A stretch of DNA of 64,000 bases, from contig JAUYHB010000027.1 in the NCBI GenBank assembly GCA_030690305.1, forward strand, positions 15,670-79,669, given 5' to 3'. The stretch comes from a bacterium. GTDB lineage: Bacteria; Patescibacteriota; Minisyncoccia; Phycocordibacterales; JAGLPS01. Positions 4,234 to 39,903 of the stretch are shown here, piece after piece. The number at the start of each line of letters is the position of its first letter. The first letter of the stretch is position 1. The position numbers were made by a program, and so were the translations under genes. Under the pieces are notes generated by a model. The model had not been told where the DNA came from, did not search any database, and was given only the letters and a program-made list of their open reading frames with translations.

Positions 4234-5334
4234 ATGCTTTCAATCGGAATTGTCGGGCTTCCAAATGTCGGAAAATCAACGTTGTTTAACGCGCTGACCC
4301 TCAAGTCTGTTCCCGCGGAAAACTTTCCTTTTTGCACCATTGACCCATCGGTAGGCATTGTTGCCGTGCCGGACGAACGGTTGTGGAAACTTACAACATT
4401 CAGCACATCGGCAAAAACCATTCCTGCCGCCATTGAATTTGTCGATATTGCCGGGCTTGTCAAAGGAGCCTCGGAAGGCGAAGGCCTTGGCAACCAATTC
4501 TTAAGTCACATCAGGGAGGTTGATGCCATTGCGGAAGTGGTGCGTATTTTTGAAGACCAAAACATCATTCACGTTGACGGGAAAATCCAGCCGCTGTCCG
4601 ACATTGAAACAATCAATCTCGAGCTTGTTTTGGCAGATTTGCAGACGGTTACGAAACGTAAGGGAAGTATTGAAAAAGACGCACGGCGAGGAGACAAAGT
4701 CGCGCTCATCGAATCGGGGGTATTGAATAAAATCGAGCCGGTTCTTAAAGAGGGGAAACCCGTTTCCACGCTCCAGTTTACGGAAGAAGAAAAACCCGTG
4801 CTTAGAAATCTTCACCTTCTGACCTCAAAACCGATTATGTATGTTCTCAACAAAAAAGGCGGGGGAACGAACCTTGATGAACTGAAAGACGAGCGCTGGA
4901 CGGCACTTTTAAAGTTTTTTGAAGACACTAACGCCAAGTGGACGATTGCCGACGCAAAAATCGAGGACGAACTCAAAGAACTTGTTGGAGAAGAAAAAGA
5001 AACGTTCCGCAAGGAACTTGGGGGAAAAGATGACGGTATCGACACGCTCATCAAAAAGGGATACGAATTGCTGAATCTCATTACGTTTTTTACCACGGGA
5101 GAAGACGAAAGCCGCGCATGGACGATACGCCGCGATTCAAAAGCGCCCGTTGCGGGCGCCGCAATCCATACCGACTTTCAGCACAGATTCATTTGTGCCG
5201 AAGTCATTCCGTGGAACACGCTTCTCGAAGCCGGCTCATACGGCACCGCCCGGGAAAAAGGCCTTCTGCGCACCGAAGGGAAGGAATATGTCGTTAAAGA
5301 TGGTGATGTGATTGAGTTCAAAATTGGTGCGTAG
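4234..5334 (+). CDS. ychF: ribosome-binding ATPase YchF (Obg-like ATPase)
   Basis: G1 motif [18 protein letters not shown]; C-terminal TGS-like end ...[14 protein letters not shown]; about 365 aa. Confidence 0.9.
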
Positions 5335-5404: not shown

Positions 5405-6349
5405 ATGGATACAACGCAGCCAACACAAAAACCCCGTACAACAGCCGCCGACTTCTTTCTCCATCTCGGAGTTATTGTCGCCTTGTACGTAACGGTAATC
5501 AGTTTTCTCAATCTCGTTTTCAGCCTTATTAACTATGTATATCCGAACTTGCCGCTTGAACAGGGGGTTCCGACAAGCGACCTGAGTATCCCCGTGTCTG
5601 CGCTTGTTATTTTTGCCCCGTTGTACATTTTTCTTTCATGGCTTCTCAATAAGCAATATGGCACCAACCCTTACAAGCGTGAGTTGGGAGTGCGAAAATG
5701 GCTGGTGTATCTTACGCTTTTTATCTCCGGTCTGGCGATTGCTATCGACCTTGTTGTTCTGGTGTACAGTTTCGTGAGCGGAGAATTAATCACTCTCGGT
5801 TTCCTCCTTAAGGTCTTGTCGGTCTTTACTGTTTTAGTCGCCGTTTTTTGGTATCATATTGCCGATTTGAAGGACAAAATAAACGCATCACAAAACAAAA
5901 AACTCGCAATTGCTCTTTCCGTTGTCATTATCGGCTTCATTTGTTTGAGTTTTGCCATTATGGGCTCGCCGTTTAAGCAAAGACTTCTGAAAATCGACGG
6001 TCGTCGAGTTTCCGACTTGCAAAACATTCAATATCAAGTGCTTAACTACTGGCAGTCAAAAGAGAAATTACCGACAACACTTGATGACCTTGTCGATTCT
6101 CTTTCGTACAACAAGGTTCCTGTCGACCCTGCTACCCAGTCCCAATATGAATATCGTGCAATTCCGCCCTTTTCCTTCGAATTGTGTGCTACCTTTGATC
6201 TTCCAAGTGAGGAAAGTGTAAAAAGTATTGCACAGCCCGAGTTTGTCAGCGACTATGAATTTGAAAACTGGAAGCATGAAAAGGGAAGAACCTGCTTTGA
6301 ACGCACTATTGACCCGGACAGGTATCCTCCGTATACCAAAGTAAGATAG
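5405..6349 (+). CDS. polytopic membrane protein, function unknown
   Basis: Several hydrophobic helices in the N-terminal 200 aa and a soluble C-terminal domain; no catalytic motif recognised. Confidence 0.6.
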   Translation: MDTTQPTQKPRTTAADFFLHLGVIVALYVTVISFLNLVFSLINYVYPNLPLEQGVPTSDLSIPVSALVIFAPLYIFLSWLLNKQYGTNPYKRELGVRKWLVYLTLFISGLAIAIDLVVLVYSFVSGELITLGFLLKVLSVFTVLVAVFWYHIADLKDKINASQNKKLAIALSVVIIGFICLSFAIMGSPFKQRLLKIDGRRVSDLQNIQYQVLNYWQSKEKLPTTLDDLVDSLSYNKVPVDPATQSQYEYRAIPPFSFELCATFDLPSEESVKSIAQPEFVSDYEFENWKHEKGRTCFERTIDPDRYPPYTKVR

Positions 6350-6361
6350 CTAAAAGAAGAG

Positions 6362-6392
6362 AAAGCGGCGGGAAAATCGCCGCTTTTTTCTG
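6362..6392 (+). terminator. rho-independent terminator
   Basis: AAGCGGCG-ggaaaat-CGCCGCTT hairpin followed by TTTTTTCT. Confidence 0.65.
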
Positions 6393-6406
6393 TATACTAG
6401 AGCAAT

Positions 6407-8845
6407 ATGGCGCAGGAATATAACCATTTGTCCATAGAAAAAAAATGGCGGGAGAAATGGGCAAAAGAAAAAATCTATAAAACAACGGAATTAGGTGACA
6501 AGCCAAAAGCCTATATTTTGGACATGTTCCCATACCCTTCAGGTGTGGGACTTCATGTCGGGCACCCAAAGGGCTACATTGCAACCGATATCTACTCACG
6601 TTTCAAGCATATGAACGGCTTCAATGTCCTGCATCCAATGGGGTGGGACGCATTCGGTTTGCCCGCGGAAGAATATGCCATTAAAAACAAAATTCATCCG
6701 CGCGTTGCCGTAGAGCAAAATATCAAACGCTACAAAGAACAGCTGGAAATTCTCGGATTCAATTATGACTGGGAGCGGGAAATCGATACTACCGACCCGA
6801 AATACTATAAATGGACGCAATGGATTTTTCTGCAGATGTTTAAAGACGGTCTTGCTTTCGAGTCGCACGAGCCGATTAACTGGTGTCCGTCATGTAAAAC
6901 AGGTCTTGCTAACGAAGACCTGGAAGGAGGAAAGTGCGAACGCTGCGGTTCGATTGTCGAAAAACGTCCGATTCGCCAGTGGGTCTTGAAAATCACCGAT
7001 TATGCGGAAGATTTGCTTGCCGACCTGAAAGATTTGGCATGGCCCGAATCCATAAAAGAATCCCAGCGAAACTGGATAGGGAAAAGTGAGGGAGCGGAAT
7101 TTGACTTCGAACTTGTGGATATTCCCGGCCAGCCCGATGGCAAACATAAGGTAAAAGTATTCACTACACGCCCCGACACGCTGTTCGGTGCGACCTTTGT
7201 AGCGATTTCCGCAGCGCGAGCGAAACTCTGGCTTGATATCGGCTGGAAAGCGAGCGAAGAAATAAAAAAATTCATCGAAAAAACTCTTGCCAAGGAAGCG
7301 GTTCGCGCGCTTAATGAAGTTCCGGAGAAGGAGGGAATGTTTACGGGCATATACGCAAAAAATCCCGCGAACAGAGAAAAAATTCCCGTATGGATTGCGA
7401 ATTACGTTCTCTCGGATTATGGAAGCGGGGTAATTATGGCAGTACCCGCCCACGATGAGCGTGATTTTGAGTTCGCCAAGAAATTCTCTATAGAAATTCG
7501 TCCTGTTGTTCTTTCAGGGGGTAGCGTCCAAATAGGTTGGACCATGGAAAAATATGCTGAAGAATGGAATGACCACTACGCTAAAAATGGCAAACTTTGG
7601 AATTCAGGTGAGTTTACTGGCATGGAAAGTGAGGAAGCGAAAAAGGAAATTATAAAGTTTGCAAAAGGAAAAGAAAAAATTCAGTACAAACTCAAAGATT
7701 GGGTATTCTCCCGTCAGCGATATTGGGGTGAACCTATTCCTCTCATCCATTGCAAAAAATGTGGTGTAGTTCCCGTGCCTGAAAAAGATTTGCCGGTGGA
7801 ATTGCCTGATGTGAAGTACTACGAACCGACCGGAACGGGGGAATCACCTCTCGCAAACATTTCAGAGTGGGTGAATGTGAAATGTCCGAAATGCGGCGGG
7901 GAAGCCAAGCGCGAAACAAATACAATGCCGCAGTGGGCCGGCTCGTGCTGGTACTACCTGCGCTACATGGACCCGAAAAATGACAAGGCGCTCGTTGACC
8001 CCAAAAAGGAAAAACACTGGGCTCCTGTGGACATGTATGTGGGAGGTACAGAACATGCCACGCGTCACCTTATCTATGCCCGTTTTTGGCATAAGTTTCT
8101 CTATAAAATAGGCGCAGTAAGCACCAAAGAGCCCTTCATAGCCCTTCGCAACCAAGGCCTTATCATGGGTACGGACGGACGAAAAATGAGTAAGCGGTTC
8201 GGAAATGTCGTTAATCCCGACGATATAGTTGCGCAATTCGGCGCGGACACCATGCGTGTATATGAAATGTTTATGGGTCCGTTTGAAGCGTCAATCTCAT
8301 GGAGTACGGACAATCTCGTGGGCTCACGGCGTTTCGTTGAGCGTGTCTGGAATCTCGCGCAAAAAGTTTCAAAAGAAGGAACCGTTTCGGACGAAACTCT
8401 TTTCAACCGTACCGTAAAGCAGGTGACCGAGGATATAGAAAATTTTCGTTTTAATACCGTCATATCGGACATGATGATATTGTTGAATTCTCTTGAAAAA
8501 GAAGAAAAAATTCCGCAAGCGATTTTTGAAACATTTATTACCCTTCTGTCTCCGGTTGCTCCACATATCACCGAGGAATTATGGCAGGCCTTGGGCTACC
8601 AAACCTCAATCCATCTTCAGCCGTGGCCGACATTTGACGTTGCAAAACTCGTATCCGAAACGGCCACAATTGCCGTGCAGGTAAACGGAAAAATCAGGGG
8701 GGAATGCACTGTCTCAAACACCGCAACAGAAGATGAAATTAAAACACAGGCACTTTCTTTAGAGTCCGTAAAAAAATGGACGGAAGGCAAGGAGATTAAA
8801 AAGACCATTTTCATAAAAGGAAAACTCATCAGTTTTGTTGTTTGA
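6407..8845 (+). CDS. leuS: leucyl-tRNA synthetase
   Basis: MFPYPSG...HVGHPKGY (HIGH region), editing/CP1 region, KMSKR (RKMSKRFGNVVNPDD); 812 aa. Confidence 0.95.
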   Translation: MAQEYNHLSIEKKWREKWAKEKIYKTTELGDKPKAYILDMFPYPSGVGLHVGHPKGYIATDIYSRFKHMNGFNVLHPMGWDAFGLPAEEYAIKNKIHPRVAVEQNIKRYKEQLEILGFNYDWEREIDTTDPKYYKWTQWIFLQMFKDGLAFESHEPINWCPSCKTGLANEDLEGGKCERCGSIVEKRPIRQWVLKITDYAEDLLADLKDLAWPESIKESQRNWIGKSEGAEFDFELVDIPGQPDGKHKVKVFTTRPDTLFGATFVAISAARAKLWLDIGWKASEEIKKFIEKTLAKEAVRALNEVPEKEGMFTGIYAKNPANREKIPVWIANYVLSDYGSGVIMAVPAHDERDFEFAKKFSIEIRPVVLSGGSVQIGWTMEKYAEEWNDHYAKNGKLWNSGEFTGMESEEAKKEIIKFAKGKEKIQYKLKDWVFSRQRYWGEPIPLIHCKKCGVVPVPEKDLPVELPDVKYYEPTGTGESPLANISEWVNVKCPKCGGEAKRETNTMPQWAGSCWYYLRYMDPKNDKALVDPKKEKHWAPVDMYVGGTEHATRHLIYARFWHKFLYKIGAVSTKEPFIALRNQGLIMGTDGRKMSKRFGNVVNPDDIVAQFGADTMRVYEMFMGPFEASISWSTDNLVGSRRFVERVWNLAQKVSKEGTVSDETLFNRTVKQVTEDIENFRFNTVISDMMILLNSLEKEEKIPQAIFETFITLLSPVAPHITEELWQALGYQTSIHLQPWPTFDVAKLVSETATIAVQVNGKIRGECTVSNTATEDEIKTQALSLESVKKWTEGKEIKKTIFIKGKLISFVV

Positions 8846-15552: not shown

Positions 15553-16172
15553 CAGAGGAAAATAAAGAAAAAACACCGCTTTTAAAACAGATTCGTGACG
15601 AGGTAGTCAAACTTTCCGCCTCGCCTCTTTATTCGGAGCGGGTAAAAAATAAAGTTTTCCCCGTTATCGGCGAAGGAAGTCATGATGCGTGCATTATGTT
15701 TGTCGGGGAAGCGCCGGGAAGAAATGAGGCCGCAACAGGAAGGCCGTTTTGCGGGGCGGCGGGAAAACTGTTGGATGAGATGCTTGCGTCAATCAATATT
15801 CCCCGCACGGACGTGTATATCACAAATATCGTCAAAGACAGACCCACGGAAAATCGCGATCCAACTCCGCAGGAAATTGAGATATACGCGCCGTTTCTTG
15901 ACCGGCAGATAGACATCATTCAGCCGAAAGTCATAGCGACCCTTGGCCGTTTCTCAATGGCATATCTTTTCAATAAATTCGGTCTTGAGTTCGAGCTTGA
16001 ACCGATAAGCCGCATTCATGGAAAAACTTTTAAGGCGGCCGTCTCATACGGAGACATAACCATTATTCCCCTCTATCATCCTGCTGTTGCCATTTACAAC
16101 ATACACATGAAGGAAACGCTCTTTAAAGACTTTGAGATACTTAAAAAATACCACCTGGACGCATCACAATAA
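15549..16172 (+). CDS. udg: uracil-DNA glycosylase, family 4
   Basis: GEAPGRNEAATGRPFCGAAGKLL family-4 UDG motif; the start ATGA overlaps the ogt stop. Confidence 0.85.
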   Translation: MTEENKEKTPLLKQIRDEVVKLSASPLYSERVKNKVFPVIGEGSHDACIMFVGEAPGRNEAATGRPFCGAAGKLLDEMLASINIPRTDVYITNIVKDRPTENRDPTPQEIEIYAPFLDRQIDIIQPKVIATLGRFSMAYLFNKFGLEFELEPISRIHGKTFKAAVSYGDITIIPLYHPAVAIYNIHMKETLFKDFEILKKYHLDASQ

Positions 16173-34843: not shown

Positions 34844-35596
34844 ATGAAGATTTACAAAAAACTTAAATTAGCAATAAAAGAAGGAGAAAAAGAAGTTATC
34901 TTTGGTGAAACTGAAACTGTAGATGAACTAAAACAAGTTTATGAATTCCGTTTTAAAGAATATTCGAGAAAAGGGTATATCATTCCCTCCCAGTTTCCCG
35001 ACAATCAAGAAAGTGACGAGTATGATAAATCTAGAAAATGTAAGTATTTTGTAGCAATTGTAGATAATAAAATTATTGGAACAGTTCGTCTTATCATTAC
35101 TGACCCTCTTCCTACGGAGAGTGTTTATCATTTTATCGAACCCGTTGAAATGCTAAAAATTCCTCGTGACAGAAGAGGGGAGCTGGGACGTCTGATTATT
35201 GTTCCCTTAGACCGTGAGAAGAAAATCTATCTTCCAAGAGGTCTCGTTCTACTTATGATGTTGGATATGTTGGCTGATTATGGTACACGAAATAATATTC
35301 AGGGAGGGTATGCATTTATTAAAAAAAGTCTTGAGCAAAAAATGAAATTACTCCGTTTTCCTTTTAATCCTATTAAAAAATTTGAATATATTGATTTAGC
35401 GACCAACACTATTCGTAATTATTTTCATCAACCTAATGACCCTGCCTTACCAATTTTTTATTTGACTGTGGATTTTAAAAAATATATTTCAAAAATTATT
35501 TATAATCCGTGGTTGTTCAAAAAAGAAAAAGATAACACCCTAATTCTTAGAAAAAACCTATATTCTTTTTTCCTCAAGGTTCTAGGGATAATTTAA
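34844..35596 (+). CDS. GNAT-fold N-acyltransferase of the autoinducer-synthase-like (LuxI/FeeM N-acyl amino acid synthase) type
   Basis: ...VYEFRFKEYSRKGYIIPSQFPDNQESDEYDKSRKCKYFVAIVDNKIIGTVRLII... and ...ELGRLIIVP... resemble the R-x-x-VF/E-x-D-x-D and GxxRL/ExSRL blocks of LuxI/FeeM-type acyl synthases. AT-rich gene. Confidence 0.55.
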   Translation: MKIYKKLKLAIKEGEKEVIFGETETVDELKQVYEFRFKEYSRKGYIIPSQFPDNQESDEYDKSRKCKYFVAIVDNKIIGTVRLIITDPLPTESVYHFIEPVEMLKIPRDRRGELGRLIIVPLDREKKIYLPRGLVLLMMLDMLADYGTRNNIQGGYAFIKKSLEQKMKLLRFPFNPIKKFEYIDLATNTIRNYFHQPNDPALPIFYLTVDFKKYISKIIYNPWLFKKEKDNTLILRKNLYSFFLKVLGII

Positions 35597-35623: not shown

Positions 35624-37186
35624 ATGGAAAATTTGATTGTACCAATTTTATATATCGTGGTGGCAGTTAATGTTATTCTCGCTTTTGTTATTTTCTCTCG
35701 AGGTCTTAAGAATTTAAAAAATCTTCTTTTTGCACTGATTGCTCTTACGACAGCAATATGGAGCGTTGCTATTATAGGTTTTTTTTCACCAGAATATCGA
35801 AGTTTTTTTGAGTGGATACGTCTAACCCACATCTCCGCTCTTTTAATTGCATTTGTGTTTTTTCATTTTTCGTTAGTTTTTCCTCAAAAAGTCTACAGAA
35901 GTTCATTGATAGCTTATTTATTCAGCATACCCTGCTTGGTTGCTTTATACTTTTTGTTTTTTACAAATCTGATAGTGAGTAACAGTGGTACAGGTGTCGC
36001 ATACGGCATTGAGGGTGGTTATATATTTTATGGCTTACTTTTGACATTCTACTTTTTCTCTGGTTATTTTTTCTTAGACGTCCAGTATAAACGCGCAAAA
36101 ACCGAAGAACAAAAAGGTCAAGTGAAGTATGTTTTTATTGGTTCCTTACTTACTTCTGCACTAGCCATAGTACCTGATTTAATTTTCCCTTTTTTTAAAA
36201 TTTTTGATTATACATGGTTAGGCCCGATATTCACCTTATTTTTAGTCGTGTCAATCTTTATTGCCATGGTTAGATTCCAGCTTTTCAATATTAGAATCAT
36301 TTTAACTGAGCTTTTTACAGGAGTAATTATCATTGTAATGATGATAGATTTATTCCTTTCAAGCTCTACCTTCGACCTATTAGTAAAATCAGGGATATTG
36401 GTATTAATTACATTTTTTGGTTTCTTATTAATAAAAAGTGTTTATAGGGAGGTTGAACAGAGAGAACATATTGAAAAACTGGCGGGGGAGCTTGAGGAGG
36501 CCAACAGACGCCAGGAGAGCCTTCTGCACTTCATAGGGCATGAAATCAAGGGATACTTCACCAAGAGCCACTGGGCGCTTTCCTCAATGATTGACGGAGA
36601 CTACGGAGAAATTGCTCCTGATTTAAAGATGCTTACCACCCAGGCCCTAGACGACACCAGGCAGGGCATTGATATGGTTGATGGTATTTTAAAGGCTGGT
36701 AATTTTAAAAAAGGGACAGTGAGTTTCAACATGAAGCCTTTCGATTTCAAGGGCGAGCTTAACAATGTTATTGGGATGCTTAAGCCTAATATTGAGACGA
36801 AAAAACTGGCCCTCCAACTTAATATTGACGAAAACCAGGATTATACGCTAAATGGCGACGGAGAGCAGATAAGCAAGCACGTCCTAAGAAATCTTATTGA
36901 TAACGCGATTAAATACACGCCTTCCGGAACCATTACAATCAGCCTTTCAAAGAAAGACAGCAAAATTCTTTTCTCTGTTAAAGATTCTGGGGTAGGAATT
37001 AAAGAAGAAGATAGAAAATTGCTGTTTACCGAAGGTGGACGAGGCAAGGATTCGGTAAAAATAAACGTCCACAGCACCGGCTACGGCCTCTTTATCGCAA
37101 AACAAATTGTAGACGCCCACAAAGGGCGCATTTGGGCTGATTCTACCGGCCCCAATCAGGGCTCCACTTTCTCTATAGAGATTTAA
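35624..37186 (+). CDS. sensor histidine kinase with an N-terminal 7-TM-like membrane domain; no adjacent response regulator
   Basis: About 7 hydrophobic helices (aa 1-280), HisKA H-box LHFIGHEIKGY, HATPase_c N/G boxes (LIDNAIKYT, VKDSGVGI, GTGYGLFIAKQIV...GSTFSIEI). Confidence 0.85.
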   Translation: MENLIVPILYIVVAVNVILAFVIFSRGLKNLKNLLFALIALTTAIWSVAIIGFFSPEYRSFFEWIRLTHISALLIAFVFFHFSLVFPQKVYRSSLIAYLFSIPCLVALYFLFFTNLIVSNSGTGVAYGIEGGYIFYGLLLTFYFFSGYFFLDVQYKRAKTEEQKGQVKYVFIGSLLTSALAIVPDLIFPFFKIFDYTWLGPIFTLFLVVSIFIAMVRFQLFNIRIILTELFTGVIIIVMMIDLFLSSSTFDLLVKSGILVLITFFGFLLIKSVYREVEQREHIEKLAGELEEANRRQESLLHFIGHEIKGYFTKSHWALSSMIDGDYGEIAPDLKMLTTQALDDTRQGIDMVDGILKAGNFKKGTVSFNMKPFDFKGELNNVIGMLKPNIETKKLALQLNIDENQDYTLNGDGEQISKHVLRNLIDNAIKYTPSGTITISLSKKDSKILFSVKDSGVGIKEEDRKLLFTEGGRGKDSVKINVHSTGYGLFIAKQIVDAHKGRIWADSTGPNQGSTFSIEI

Positions 37187-37202
37187 CCTGAAGTGGTTTT
37201 TC

Positions 37203-37231
37203 TTGACAAAGCAAGAAAAAGATTATATTAT
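37203..37231 (+). promoter_or_regulatory. near-consensus sigma-70 promoter for the rSAM-peptide operon, followed by a palindrome
   Basis: TTGACA - 17 nt - TATTAT; downstream GTCTTTG-ACA-AAAGAC inverted repeat (37245-37260) and AAAGGAGG RBS before ATG 37295. Confidence 0.6.
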
Positions 37232-37294
37232 ATGAGGAAGTTGGTCTTTGACAAAAGACTTTTGAATCTCTAGACAGAAAGGAGGATAGATGAC

Positions 37295-38350
37295 ATGAGT
37301 TCATTCCAAGTGAAAATTGTTGGTGATTTCTGTAACATCCGTTGTACATATTGCAGAAACCGTGACTTTGATCAAGATACGAATGTTTTGATGTCTGTGG
37401 CCAATCTAGAAAAACTTTTTGTTTTTCTAGATTCGTTACCACAAGCACGAATTCGTGTGAATTGGCACGGGGGCGAGCCATTGCTGGCAGGAAAAAAGTT
37501 TTTCCATCATATCTTGAGACTGGAAAACCAATATAAGCAAAAAATATGGATGAATGCTGTTCAGACAAATGCCATGTTGATTGATGATGATTGGGCTAAA
37601 CTTTTCCATGATAACCACTTTGATATCGGAGTAAGTATTGATGGAAGTGAACAAACGCATAACAGTGACAGAATAAATGTTGCTGGACGTGGAACATATA
37701 AGGAAGCGATGCGTGGTGTGGAAGCTCTTCGTCATAATAGCATTCATCCCGGCGTTATCTGTACTGTTACTAAAAAGACTGTCAGATACGCAAAAGAGAT
37801 GCTTCTTGATCTAGTGGATGCTGGGTTTAAAAGCATTGCTTTCAATGCTTTCTATAACACAGCGTCAGATTGTGATGGTGATACGTACGGACTAACAGAC
37901 ACAGAATGGCTGGCGTTTCTCATAGAAATATTTGAAACGTGGCTCGTACTTAATGATCCCACAATTCGTGTTCGCGAGTTGGATAGCATGCTTGCATGGA
38001 CCAAATCAAAAAGTGCTAATTCTTGCGTGTATAAAGGTACCTGTTATCAGTGGTTCGCTATCCATTACACTGGCGACATTTATCCTTGTGAAAGGCTGGG
38101 TAAATCTACCCATTTTGGAAGTATTGACTCCCTGAGAACTTTTCAGGACTTAGTGAATACTCCTGTTTTCCTTAATTGGAAAGAGTCAATTGGCCAACTT
38201 CCTCAAAGGTGTCGCACTTGCAGTTTGCAGTCATTGTGTCATAATGGTTGCGTTAGCCATCGGAAAGCAGATGAAGAGGGGGTGCCTCTTTACAGGTATT
38301 GTGAAAGTAGGCTCGGTTTCTATGATTACATCAAGGAAAGACTTAAATGA
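37295..38350 (+). CDS. radical SAM enzyme with a C-terminal SPASM domain (peptide-maturase type)
   Basis: CNIRCTYC (CX3CX2C) radical-SAM cluster motif. C-terminal auxiliary-cluster cysteines CVYKGTC...YPCE...CRTCSLQSLCHNGC are typical of SPASM (anSME/PqqE/MftC/AlbA-like) enzymes. Confidence 0.85.
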   Translation: MSSFQVKIVGDFCNIRCTYCRNRDFDQDTNVLMSVANLEKLFVFLDSLPQARIRVNWHGGEPLLAGKKFFHHILRLENQYKQKIWMNAVQTNAMLIDDDWAKLFHDNHFDIGVSIDGSEQTHNSDRINVAGRGTYKEAMRGVEALRHNSIHPGVICTVTKKTVRYAKEMLLDLVDAGFKSIAFNAFYNTASDCDGDTYGLTDTEWLAFLIEIFETWLVLNDPTIRVRELDSMLAWTKSKSANSCVYKGTCYQWFAIHYTGDIYPCERLGKSTHFGSIDSLRTFQDLVNTPVFLNWKESIGQLPQRCRTCSLQSLCHNGCVSHRKADEEGVPLYRYCESRLGFYDYIKERLK

Positions 38351-38365
38351 AAGGGGGTAAGGACC

Positions 38366-38551
38366 ATGTCACGTAAGAGTAGTTCTTTAGTTAATGAACG
38401 GCAGTCATCGCTATCTGGAAATCTCGCGCTTCAAGGTTCATTTAGCCGGATTGAGGATGGTAGTCGTTTTTCATCAAAAATACCGGAAGTCACGAATTAC
38501 GATGACTATCAGTATTCCGATTGCGACTACGATGACAGTGGAAAAAACTGA
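38366..38551 (+). CDS. putative RiPP precursor peptide (61 aa) with a Tyr/Asp-rich C-terminal core
   Basis: ATG 15 nt after the rSAM stop with AAAGGGGGT RBS. Sequence MSRKSSSLVNERQSSLSGNLALQGSFSRIEDGSRFSSKIPEVTNYDDYQYSDCDYDDSGKN. A strong terminator follows. Confidence 0.55.
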   Translation: MSRKSSSLVNERQSSLSGNLALQGSFSRIEDGSRFSSKIPEVTNYDDYQYSDCDYDDSGKN

Positions 38552-38574
38552 CACGAAGTAAGTTTTTAGTTAGC

Positions 38575-38610
38575 CAAGAGCGGGTTTGCAAAAACCCGCT
38601 CTTTTTTTTA
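38575..38610 (+). terminator. strong rho-independent terminator ending the rSAM-peptide operon
   Basis: GAGCGGGTTT-gca-AAACCCGCTC hairpin followed by TTTTTTTT. Confidence 0.75.
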
Positions 38611-38623
38611 ATATGAATACATT

Positions 38624-39409
38624 GTGAATAAAGATTTGTTAATGTCTTATGATCAGTACTCGAAAATTAAGCATGAAACTCCATATTTTTACATTGCCAA
38701 ATCAACAAAACAATCAATCTACTATTTTGGTTCCAGTCATTCCCATGATCCCAATCATCCGCAATTTGAATTATTAAAAGCGAAATGGAACGAATTTCTT
38801 GATGAAACTAAGGGACTGAAAACAGTAGTTCTTGTAGAAGCACATGAAATGCCAGAGCCAGAAGCTACACTGGAAAAAGAAATTATTAAACATGGTGAGT
38901 CAGGTGCGGGAGCCTATCTAGCGTATAAAAATAAGGCGCTGCTTATCTTTGGAGAACCTCAAAACGATAAAATAATTGTCCATCTGCTTCAATATTTTTC
39001 TAAAGAAGAGATTCTTTTTTGGTATGAATGCCAAGCTATAAAATTTTGGCAGCAACACAAAAAGGGAAGAAGCATACATGAATTTCTTTCAAATCATACT
39101 GAGAAATATCGTAAATTATTTAAATGGCCGGATTTGGTTATATCTTTAGAACTTGTTAATTCGATATATAAAAAATTATTTAATCAAGAGTTGAATATTG
39201 ATGACGAAGAATTATTCTCTCAAATTACCACTCCAATAACTGTTTTATCAAGAATTAATGAATTGTCCAGAAGCCAATCTATCTACAGAAATGAGCAGAT
39301 ATTGGTGCAAATAGAAAAATATTGGAAAGAGGGAAGTAATATTTTTGTTATCTATGGTGCTGGTCATGCGGTTATGCAGGAATCCGCCATCCGTAGTTTA
39401 GTTGGCTAG
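38624..39409 (+). CDS. TraB/GumN (Tiki-like) family protein, putative metalloprotease
   Basis: N-terminal ...IYYFGSSHSHDPNHP... and C-terminal ...FVIYGAGHAVMQESAIRSLVG match the two conserved GxxH blocks of TraB/GumN/Tiki proteins. GTG start; very AT-rich. Confidence 0.55.
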   Translation: MNKDLLMSYDQYSKIKHETPYFYIAKSTKQSIYYFGSSHSHDPNHPQFELLKAKWNEFLDETKGLKTVVLVEAHEMPEPEATLEKEIIKHGESGAGAYLAYKNKALLIFGEPQNDKIIVHLLQYFSKEEILFWYECQAIKFWQQHKKGRSIHEFLSNHTEKYRKLFKWPDLVISLELVNSIYKKLFNQELNIDDEELFSQITTPITVLSRINELSRSQSIYRNEQILVQIEKYWKEGSNIFVIYGAGHAVMQESAIRSLVG

Positions 39410-39432
39410 ACAATTCTTAAGGAATATATTTA

Positions 39433-39903
39433 ATGATACTACGACAAAGAGTAGCTGCGATTGTGGTTAAAGAAGATACGGTGCTTCTAATGCATCGTAT
39501 TAATGATGGAAAGGAATATTATTCTTTTCCTGGTGGTGGCAAGGAAGAAAATGAAAGTCTAGAAACAGGAGCGCTTCGAGAACTTTCTGAAGAAACGACA
39601 GTTGATGCAATAATTGACCGTTTGGTGTATAAGGTTATATGGGATAGCGGTGATGAGAACTACTTCTATCTTTGTAATTACATTTCAGGAGAACCAAAAC
39701 TAAGAGAGGATGCCGAAGAGCTAAAAGAGATGGCTGACGGAAAACAGGCGTATAAGCCGGAATGGGTTTATATTTCCGATTTACCCAACACCCTTTTATA
39801 TCAGTTAGAAATCAGAGATTTACTTATAAAAGACTTAAAAAATGGCTTTCTCGAACATCCTCAAGAACTCTTTATAAAAGTTGAAGAAAGACGTCGGATA
39901 TAA
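39433..39903 (+). CDS. Nudix hydrolase
   Basis: Nudix box GGGKEENESLETGALRELSEETTV. Confidence 0.8.
   Translation: MILRQRVAAIVVKEDTVLLMHRINDGKEYYSFPGGGKEENESLETGALRELSEETTVDAIIDRLVYKVIWDSGDENYFYLCNYISGEPKLREDAEELKEMADGKQAYKPEWVYISDLPNTLLYQLEIRDLLIKDLKNGFLEHPQELFIKVEERRRI

Follow-up and report, generated by a model that had tools for sequence, protein, structure and literature searches.

The 64,000-nt stretch analysed here, hereafter the window, spans positions 15,670 to 79,669 of the forward strand of contig JAUYHB010000027.1 (assembly GCA_030690305.1; Patescibacteriota, JAGLPS01), and coordinates are window positions unless a relative is named. Its plus strand carries three consecutive genes coding for a radical S-adenosylmethionine (rSAM)/SPASM enzyme, a short peptide and a hydrolase. 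The rSAM gene (37295..38350) encodes a putative peptide maturase of 351 amino acids whose Pfam domains and aligned cysteines indicate an architecture like that of the anaerobic sulfatase-maturating enzymes (anSME). A Shine-Dalgarno sequence, AGGAGG (37280..37285), lies 9 nt before its ATG at 37295. The open reading frame (ORF) of the 61-residue putative precursor peptide (38366..38551), assigned from its conservation and substitution pattern, starts 15 nt past the TGA of the rSAM gene. It is preceded by the ribosome-binding region AGGGGGTAAGGA (38352..38363), which includes GGGGG/AAGGA at 38353..38363. The third gene (38624..39409) has a GTG start and codes for a 261-residue hydrolase of predicted TIKI/TraB/ChaN fold, a putative leader or processing peptidase. 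Comparative genomics finds the rSAM, peptide and hydrolase genes co-conserved in this fixed order, and the locus is a real conserved three-gene cassette of ultra-small bacteria of the candidate phyla radiation (CPR)/Parcubacteria. The preliminary description of this DNA had recognized the rSAM enzyme with its CX3CX2C motif and full C-terminal set of SPASM cysteines, and the 61-residue ORF 15 nt after its stop codon behind a strong ribosome-binding site; both are present as described. It had also taken the two genes for a self-contained unit, which they are not: the hydrolase gene belongs to it, being found 3' of the peptide gene in all 15 contexts whose rSAM enzyme shares 46% identity or more with that of the window.

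Relatives were sought by scanning public genome and metagenome contigs with a profile of the enzyme; among the matches listed, most were distant anSME-like genes and the informative loci were L001, L002, L003, L081, L082 and L085. The neighbourhoods of close relatives were retrieved individually. A database search gave 232 rSAM homologues at E <= 1e-10, of which the named ones (Zambryski-, Yonath-, Yanofsky- and Pacebacteria) come from CPR of the Parcubacteria group. Wherever downstream sequence is available for a relative (rSAM identity 36-84%), a small ORF of 36-72 codons lies on the same strand directly 3' of the rSAM gene; over all relatives examined the peptides span 36-78 residues. The reciprocal search from peptide P0161, which is carried by 16 contigs, finds an rSAM gene immediately upstream in the four contexts shown. 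The pairing of a maturase with its precursor, proposed from the window alone, is thus recovered from either gene. In the 13 cassettes examined that have a third gene, the spacing between rSAM stop and peptide start varies between -38 and +58 nt, and the overlap of the two genes in five of them suggests translational coupling. The order rSAM, peptide and protein of about 250 residues is found in the window and in L001, L002, L081, L161, L163, L164, L166, L167, L168, L171-L174 and L176. At least 108 rSAM sequence clusters (90% identity) share 44% identity or more with the window enzyme; clustering of the peptides at 50% identity gives at least 33 groups. One locus, L003, is recorded as Methanosarcinales archaeon. 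Its peptide is nearly identical to that of Pacebacteria locus L170 (…GENAVLGALKRIEGQSINKS…YPFDNYDDFVDFPDATPPK), so the contig is probably a mis-binned CPR contig or the result of a recent transfer.

The peptide family was defined by 55 distinct sequences, taken from the loci and from profile-search hits (21 from an indexed database and 33 cluster representatives from an exhaustive search). The preliminary description had seen a Ser-rich leader in the window peptide. This Ser-rich N-terminus is not conserved in the family; the conserved leader element is A-L-x-G-A-F-x-R-I, and its motif A-[LIV]-x-[GAD]-A-[FLI]-x-R is shared by 54 of the 55 peptides. It corresponds to A21-L-Q-G-S-F-S-R28 in the window (38426..38449), where R28 is the Arg that is invariant in both peptide alignments. 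A variable spacer follows and leads to a run of [Y/H/F/W]-x-D triplets. The window core Y45-D-D-Y-Q-Y50-S-D-C53-D-Y55-D-D57 (38498..38536) holds the triplets Y45-D-D47, Y50-S-D52 and Y55-D-D57 plus one C-x3-D, and the peptide ends in NYDDYQYSDCDYDD. Across the 55 peptides 248 aromatic-x-Asp triplets are observed and 74.3 are expected from within-core shuffles (z = 24.7, a value inflated by the counting of related sequences). Tyr is the aromatic residue in 200 of them, His in 18, Phe in 17 and Trp in 13, while the middle residue X2 varies freely (D, V, S, Q, P and others). Three triplets or more are found in 53 of the 55 peptides, and the pattern recurs across cores that cannot otherwise be aligned, such as YSDYSDYSD, YVDCPYDDYQD, WDDQWDHWD and FVDFPD. 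The core is otherwise hypervariable, its constraint being the keeping of three to nine aromatic-x-Asp triplets. The core had been described as rich in Tyr and Asp. Both residues are indeed there, but the defining feature is the repeated triplet and neither their abundance nor Cys.

Only 31 of the 55 peptides contain Cys, and cores that are otherwise identical can have Ser, Ala or Met in its place (YVD[C/S/A/M]PYDD). Every core Cys present lies in D-C-x3-D, with at most one C-x3-D per peptide and none in 24 of the 55. The ratio of nonsynonymous to synonymous change (pN/pS) of the peptide ORF is 0.31-0.63 among five close relatives, with synonymous change near saturation, which indicates that the frame is translated and constrained. 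The window peptide has no match in Pfam or NCBIfam, and four peptides of the family have no NCBIfam match even at E up to 1. The sulfatase-type motif C/S-x-P-x-R occurs in none of the family peptides, and the family has no conserved core Ser or Cys for an oxidation of the formylglycine (FGly) type.

The rSAM motif C13-x3-C17-x2-C20 sits at the extreme N-terminus of the enzyme, which therefore has no N-terminal recognition element (RRE) of the kind that serves RiPPs (peptides synthesized ribosomally and modified post-translationally). The Pfam domains Radical_SAM, Fer4_12 and SPASM are detected. The C-terminal cysteines C244, C250, C265, C306, C309, C315, C319 and C336 align one-to-one with the auxiliary-cluster cysteines of anSMEcpe, and among 22 homologues the cluster cysteines, 11 in all, are invariant except for C244, which is nearly so. 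Directly after a Cys of the first auxiliary cluster (AuxI), E266 occupies the position of the anSME base D277 and is followed by the invariant R267; distant rSAM relatives have D or E at the D277-equivalent position. An anSME is marked by two auxiliary clusters ligated entirely by Cys and by an acidic base; the eight aligned cysteines and E266 represent these features here. In the catalytic site proximity positions defined in PMC10288494, to which position 267 belongs, the window enzyme has R21, E266 and R267 at positions 1, 5 and 6. R267 and R339 are Arg in all 22 enzymes of the Asp type. The six enzymes found next to W-D-K repeat peptides (see below) have Ser at position 267 (6 of 6) and Leu (5) or Gln (1) at position 339, and anSME-like enzymes mostly have His, Phe, Tyr or Leu at these two positions. 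This covariation of Arg versus Ser/Leu with the core type mirrors, by analogy, the role of HtkB D214, which governs Lys at X3 (PMC11499958).

Among NCBIfam models the best for the enzyme is anSME TIGR03942, with 230.5 bits for a cutoff of 349.45. The other anSME models PRK13758 and PRK13745 give 164 and 125 bits (cutoffs 441 and 484). The second-best family is DynA (183 bits, cutoff 450), then come PapB (NF047865; 147, cutoff 340), AmcB (138, cutoff 425), DarW (133, cutoff 650), GrrM/OscB (130, cutoff 310), YhhB (107, cutoff 445), the His-Xaa-Ser model TIGR03978 (103, cutoff 370), FxsB (95, cutoff 370) and XyeB (91, cutoff 450). The comparison with curated enzyme families that the preliminary description had called for agrees with its reading, as neither the window enzyme nor four of its relatives reaches any NCBIfam cutoff. 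The enzyme ranks with the group of anSME, DynA, DarW, GrrM, AmcB and YhhB, to which the known cyclophane synthases belong. The family profile gives 106 bits on the structure of CteB. The triceptide synthase ChlB is a poor alignment reference, its aligned AuxI Cys region being missing.

Best matches in NCBIfam and in the PDB, together with the retained eight auxiliary-cluster cysteines and the acidic residue at the D277 position, could be taken to mean that the enzyme is an ordinary anSME acting on a sulfatase encoded elsewhere and that the small ORF is incidental. We consider this very improbable, in line with the doubt already expressed in the preliminary description. The score stays below the TIGR03942 cutoff, no sulfatase signature (PS00523-type) is present in the six-frame translation of the window, and no sulfatase Pfam family occurs in about 15 annotated neighbourhoods of relatives. 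The small ORF itself is patterned and co-conserved, evolves under purifying selection and appears coupled to the enzyme gene in translation, and the peptides are devoid of the sulfatase motif. Likeness to anSME over the full length does not fix the chemistry of the enzyme, since the cyclophane-forming DarE is likewise most similar to AnSME over its full length (PMC10288494).

Triceptides carry aromatic1-X2-X3 motifs in which the aromatic ring is crosslinked to the Cβ of X3 by RRE-less rSAM/SPASM enzymes (PMC11499958; PMC12912966). As read from the sequences, a repeated aromatic/Asp pair at positions i and i+2 with a free middle residue, encoded beside an RRE-less SPASM enzyme of the anSME/DynA/DarE/3-CyFE neighbourhood, is what defines a triceptide substrate motif. 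More distant anSME-like enzymes of Patescibacteria (27-31% identity) are also followed by peptides with W-D-K or H/Y/W-x-D repeats. These repeats and the covariation of positions 267 and 339 with the core type point to a reaction centred on residue 3. We privilege, with moderate confidence, the hypothesis that the cassette makes a triceptide-like RiPP in which, by analogy, each aromatic ring would be joined to Cβ of the Asp that lies two positions downstream, the hydrolase then processing the peptide. The cassette may belong to the triceptides proper: the enzyme type and the motif would place it there, and the enzyme scores below the cutoffs of the curated models.

The following course of events could be envisaged. 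The RRE-less, anSME-like enzyme would bind the leader of the peptide and cleave SAM reductively. The 5'-deoxyadenosyl radical would abstract hydrogen from Cβ of the third residue, Asp, in each triplet, and the resulting carbon radical would attack the aromatic side chain (Tyr, or else His, Phe or Trp) that lies two residues upstream. E266, the acidic residue at the D277 position, and the auxiliary clusters would complete rearomatization, giving one three-residue cyclophane (-2 Da) per triplet. R267 and R339 may bind the Asp carboxylates. An extra thioether between Cys-S and Asp-Cβ would be possible in D-C-x3-D cores. The TIKI-like hydrolase, acting in the cytoplasm, would remove the leader or cut the modified core, and the internal terminator described below would keep the transcripts of the enzyme and peptide genes in large excess over that of the hydrolase gene.

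Several observations weigh against this hypothesis. All curated models of three-residue cyclophane-forming enzymes are missed at their cutoffs (XyeB, GrrM/OscB, FxsB, YhhB and AmcB), and on solved structures the family profile scores 266 bits for anSMEcpe (4K36) versus 103 for the triceptide synthase ChlB. The type of crosslink is drawn by analogy from the geometry of the motif, whose enrichment is overstated by the inflated z value given above. No triceptide with Asp at X3 is documented in the searchable literature, the survey of Sugiyama et al. 2022 (JACS 144:11580) lying outside that scope. The hydrolase gene is missing from the fetched flanks of relatives whose rSAM enzyme is 44% identical or less, and no transporter or immunity gene is conserved nearby in about 15 neighbourhoods.

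The same cassette could also perform another chemistry on Tyr-x-Asp, such as a Tyr-O-to-Cβ ether, β-oxidation or decarboxylation of Asp, Cα epimerization, or a ranthipeptide-like thioether between Cys-S and Asp-Cβ as the main modification. The nearest characterized relative, anSME, oxidizes a Cβ and forms no C-C bonds; one of the top-ranking families is PapB (147 bits), which forms Cys-X3-Asp thioethers, and all core cysteines lie in D-C-x3-D. Ether links are made by related rSAM/SPASM enzymes, as in the daropeptides (PMC9055067). The dispensability of Cys, missing from 24 of 55 peptides and exchanged for Ser, Ala or Met in cores that are otherwise identical, means that a thioether cannot define the family. 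An FGly-type oxidation is opposed by the lack of a conserved core Ser or Cys. The conserved i/i+2 spacing of aromatic residue and Asp with a free X2 is the signature of a pairwise link between the two residues. These alternative chemistries, taken together, are possible but rather unlikely.

The AlphaFold model of the third gene product, built on 21 homologues, has a mean predicted local distance difference test (pLDDT) score of 94 and presents the α/β fold with a parallel β-sheet core that is common to TraB, ChaN, Ere, RRSP and HopBA1. The Pfam family TraB_PrgY_gumN (PF01963) gives 16.8 bits on the window hydrolase, under its gathering threshold of 26.8, and matches weakly in 18 of 21 homologues (best E 0.0017). 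The N-terminus MNKDLL that follows from the GTG start corresponds to MNKNLL in relatives. Invariant residues comprise two GxxH motifs (H39 and H248), E72, E92, E111 and R222-N223. G36xxH39 and G245xxH248 each follow a β-strand and were compared, by position and not by superposition, with the 2His/2Glu set that forms the catalytic motif of TIKI (PMC6254334). The invariant His and Glu residues are compatible with such a hydrolytic motif, as judged from the alignment. A profile search of PDB sequences with the hydrolase gave only a chance match to RGS17. A Foldseek search of the model against the PDB returned nothing significant, and the protein is for this reason placed as a distant member of the superfamily. 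It is soluble, without a membrane domain. In L169, a cassette with a 44%-identical rSAM enzyme, the third gene (4366..5085) codes instead for a protein of 239 residues that contains HEYIH, an HExxH-like motif. Enzymes of the HExxH type that cut RiPP backbones have been described next to triceptide-type genes (PMC12636437, PMC12912966). The terms TraB, Tiki and PrgY are not found in the text of a 2023 review of RiPP leader peptidases, which thus gives this fold no part in RiPP processing.

The peptide could alternatively be a sacrificial scaffold from which the hydrolase excises crosslinked Tyr-Asp units for use as an intracellular cofactor, chelator or signal. Pyrroloquinoline quinone (PQQ) derives in a comparable manner from Glu-Tyr through PqqE and mycofactocin from Val-Tyr through MftC, and SPASM enzymes for Tyr-based cofactors are thus established. 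The lack of a conserved transporter or immunity gene would fit such a role, as would the lack of an obvious signal sequence in both hydrolase and peptide, the repetition of units, which would yield several copies per peptide, and the maintenance of the cassette in streamlined genomes. We judge this improbable. Neither the PqqE nor the MftC model ranks near the top of the NCBIfam matches of the enzyme, and no further tailoring enzymes (oxidases or similar) are conserved in the cassette. The number and spacing of units vary widely and flanks such as P-Y-D-D-Y-Q-D are conserved, a better fit to an intact multi-ring peptide. Equally small is the probability we give to excised Tyr-Asp blocks being used in the cell or by a host-symbiont pair, where they might be read by the 7TM histidine kinases that adjoin the cassette.

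The arrangement of transcription signals differs from that first described. The hairpin at 38576..38611, between the peptide and hydrolase genes on the plus strand, has a stem at 38576..38603 with 12 pairs, of which 6 are G-C, a loop of 4 nt and then T8. It had been taken for a strong terminator closing the unit. The hairpin is as strong as stated, but it is internal, since the hydrolase gene comes after it in relatives as well. A G+C-rich hairpin with a T-run is found at the same place in 13 of 13 cassettes, with different stem sequences, and is thus a conserved internal element and not the end of the unit. Both the gene pair and this hairpin stand above chance. Most simply, this intrinsic terminator would work as an attenuator, holding hydrolase expression below that of the enzyme and the peptide. 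It may instead be a transcript boundary, with the hydrolase message starting from a TAATAT box after it. Such a box, TAATAT(G/A)AA, lies right after the T-run in the window (38604..38623) and in L171, L172, L173 and L167, about 10-20 nt before the hydrolase start and with no Shine-Dalgarno sequence, so the hydrolase may be translated from a leaderless or short-leader transcript. A search of 36800..39600 against Rfam found no known RNA element, only sub-threshold similarity to terminator-bearing small RNAs.

Upstream of the rSAM gene, the near-consensus promoter of the preliminary description, TTGACA-17-TATTAT (37203..37231, plus strand), is present and matches 11 of 12 consensus positions. It is not above chance, as the region has 19 promoter-like sites and 18.3 are expected from shuffles, and the site is not aligned in relatives; a promoter here is plausible and the site is kept as a candidate only. 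A minus-strand site, TTGTCA-16-TATAAT (37254..37227, 11 of 12 matches), overlaps it and is directed into the histidine kinase gene at its 3' end. The palindrome GTCTTT-GACA-AAAGAC (37244..37259), which holds a second TTGACA box (37249..37254), had been seen as operator-like. This reading was discarded, the palindrome not being above chance: its arms are 6 nt long, 151 nt hold six inverted repeats of this kind, itself included, and it is not kept as a palindrome in relatives. A TTGACAAA box about 46 nt before the ATG recurs in L171 and L172.

The gene preceding the cassette (35624..37186) codes for a 7TM sensor histidine kinase (HisKA_7TM and HATPase_c) and ends 108 nt before the rSAM gene. Directly upstream of it is a FeeM/N-acyl amino acid synthase-like gene (34844..35596; Pfam FeeM E 2.8e-10, with a weak autoinducer-synthase match). 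L161, L173 and L168 likewise have histidine kinases flanking the cassette, and no response regulator was seen nearby. NUDIX hydrolase genes adjoin the cassette, on either side, in four different contexts (window 39433..39903; L167 2337..2846; L174 1302..2311; L164 1462..1944). They are not orthologous, being distant from each other (BLASTP E 1e-15 to >0.1), and their adjacency may be a coincidence in genomes rich in NUDIX genes. L170 has a second Radical_SAM gene (5748..7001) 1.5 kb downstream of its cassette, and an ATP-grasp MvdD-like gene of the microviridin type lies upstream in L164 (1..57) and L165. A role of the cassette in anti-phage defence was considered and rejected, the rSAM similarity to viperin-type enzymes being weak and generic.

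Other repeat peptides are encoded beside distant rSAM relatives. Peptides of about 50 residues with W-D-K repeats follow anSME-like rSAM genes (27-31% identical) of Saccharibacteria and Parcubacteria in L011 (5059..5223), L012 (5111..5275), L013 (5111..5260), L092 (1346..1507), L093 (4100..4273) and L095 (1344..1514). They have a leader …PKVLLQAKKEA… and a core …PWDKAWDKGPWDKGHWANRK, and apparently form a second, uncurated family of aromatic-x-X repeat peptides. The peptides of L091 (1295..1492) and L047 (5140..5388) have H/Y/W-x-D repeats (e.g. HSGYSDAGYNDSHSDSGGPGWGDQWNDGSEHSDSWSD), and that of L006 (5076..5183) carries W-K-N and W-L-R triplets instead. In these three loci a protein of 316-344 residues with the motif NLFHFxSNLTxWHxSxR replaces the TIKI-like gene product (L091 1573..2556; L047 5412..6446; L006 5214..6164).

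The preliminary description did not recognize the gene pair as a described RiPP class. No curated model and no searchable paper describes it, but the motif places it beside the triceptides. Searches for 'YxD' with cyclophane or radical SAM, for aromatic-x-Asp repeat precursors and for rSAM peptides of CPR found nothing in the searchable literature, although the survey of Sugiyama et al. 2022 may list these precursors. The product, considered by analogy, is most likely a ring-crosslinked peptide undescribed in databases or searchable papers, and the cassette is a tractable lead for genome mining, not a categorically new system. CPR/Patescibacteria are largely uncultured and have minimal genomes, and to our knowledge little work has been done on their natural products. 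The cassette is compact and widely conserved, and three genes suffice for heterologous expression. If the proposed chemistry is true, Asp would join the crosslink acceptors of three-residue cyclophane chemistry, with multi-ring Tyr/Asp peptides of extreme acidity as products, and an enzyme of TIKI/TraB fold would enter the repertoire of RiPP processing enzymes. R267/R339 for Asp versus Ser/Leu in W-D-K-type enzymes are candidate specificity determinants for engineering. The anSME-like genes of CPR genomes should not carry the annotation of sulfatase maturase.

Among known systems, triceptides (made by the XyeB, GrrM/OscB, FxsB, YhhB, HaaB, HtkB, ChlB and MicB enzymes) share with the cassette an RRE-less rSAM/SPASM maturase encoded beside a small precursor. 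Their precursors have one to many aromatic1-X2-X3 motifs with X2 free and use all four aromatic residues, as the cassette cores do, and a further likeness is the expected proteolytic cut ahead of the first ring. X3 is Lys, Arg, Asn, Ser or Ala in the triceptides characterized in the accessible part of the literature, whereas it is almost always Asp here. The CPR host, the accessory hydrolase of TIKI/TraB fold and an enzyme much closer to anSME than to ChlB also set the cassette apart. The bond from a ring carbon to the X3 Cβ (-2 Da per motif) defines the class and is proposed here for Asp. Within the TIKI/TraB/PrgY/ChaN/erythromycin-esterase superfamily, the hydrolase differs by its sub-threshold Pfam score and its soluble form.

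The best sequence match of the enzyme is anSME (anSMEcpe, PDB 4K36-4K39; TIGR03942), which is full-length, of the same architecture and with all cluster cysteines aligned. It differs in that R21, R267 and R339 of the cassette enzyme replace hydrophobic or aromatic residues of the anSME type, and in that the cassette enzyme is below the cutoff, has no sulfatase partner and is accompanied by a dedicated, co-conserved peptide without C/S-x-P-x-R. DynA and DarE/DarW, the maturases of dynobactin and darobactin, are anSME-like as well and join an aromatic ring with the Cβ of a residue two positions from it. Their precursors have a single short Trp-based core with no repeated Tyr-x-Asp, and their hosts are Proteobacteria. 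In the ranthipeptides of PapB/freyrasin type the Cβ of Asp is the radical site, and the core Cys of the cassette peptides, when present, lies in C-x3-D. The PapB type needs multiple Cys-X3-Asp motifs, however, while the cassette peptides hold one at most. The His-Xaa-Ser system (HxsA with HxsB/HxsC/HxsD) resembles the cassette in its residue-x-residue tripeptide repeats and rSAM/SPASM enzymes; it uses two rSAM enzymes and HxsD on HxS repeats, whereas the cassette has a single rSAM enzyme and Y-x-D repeats.

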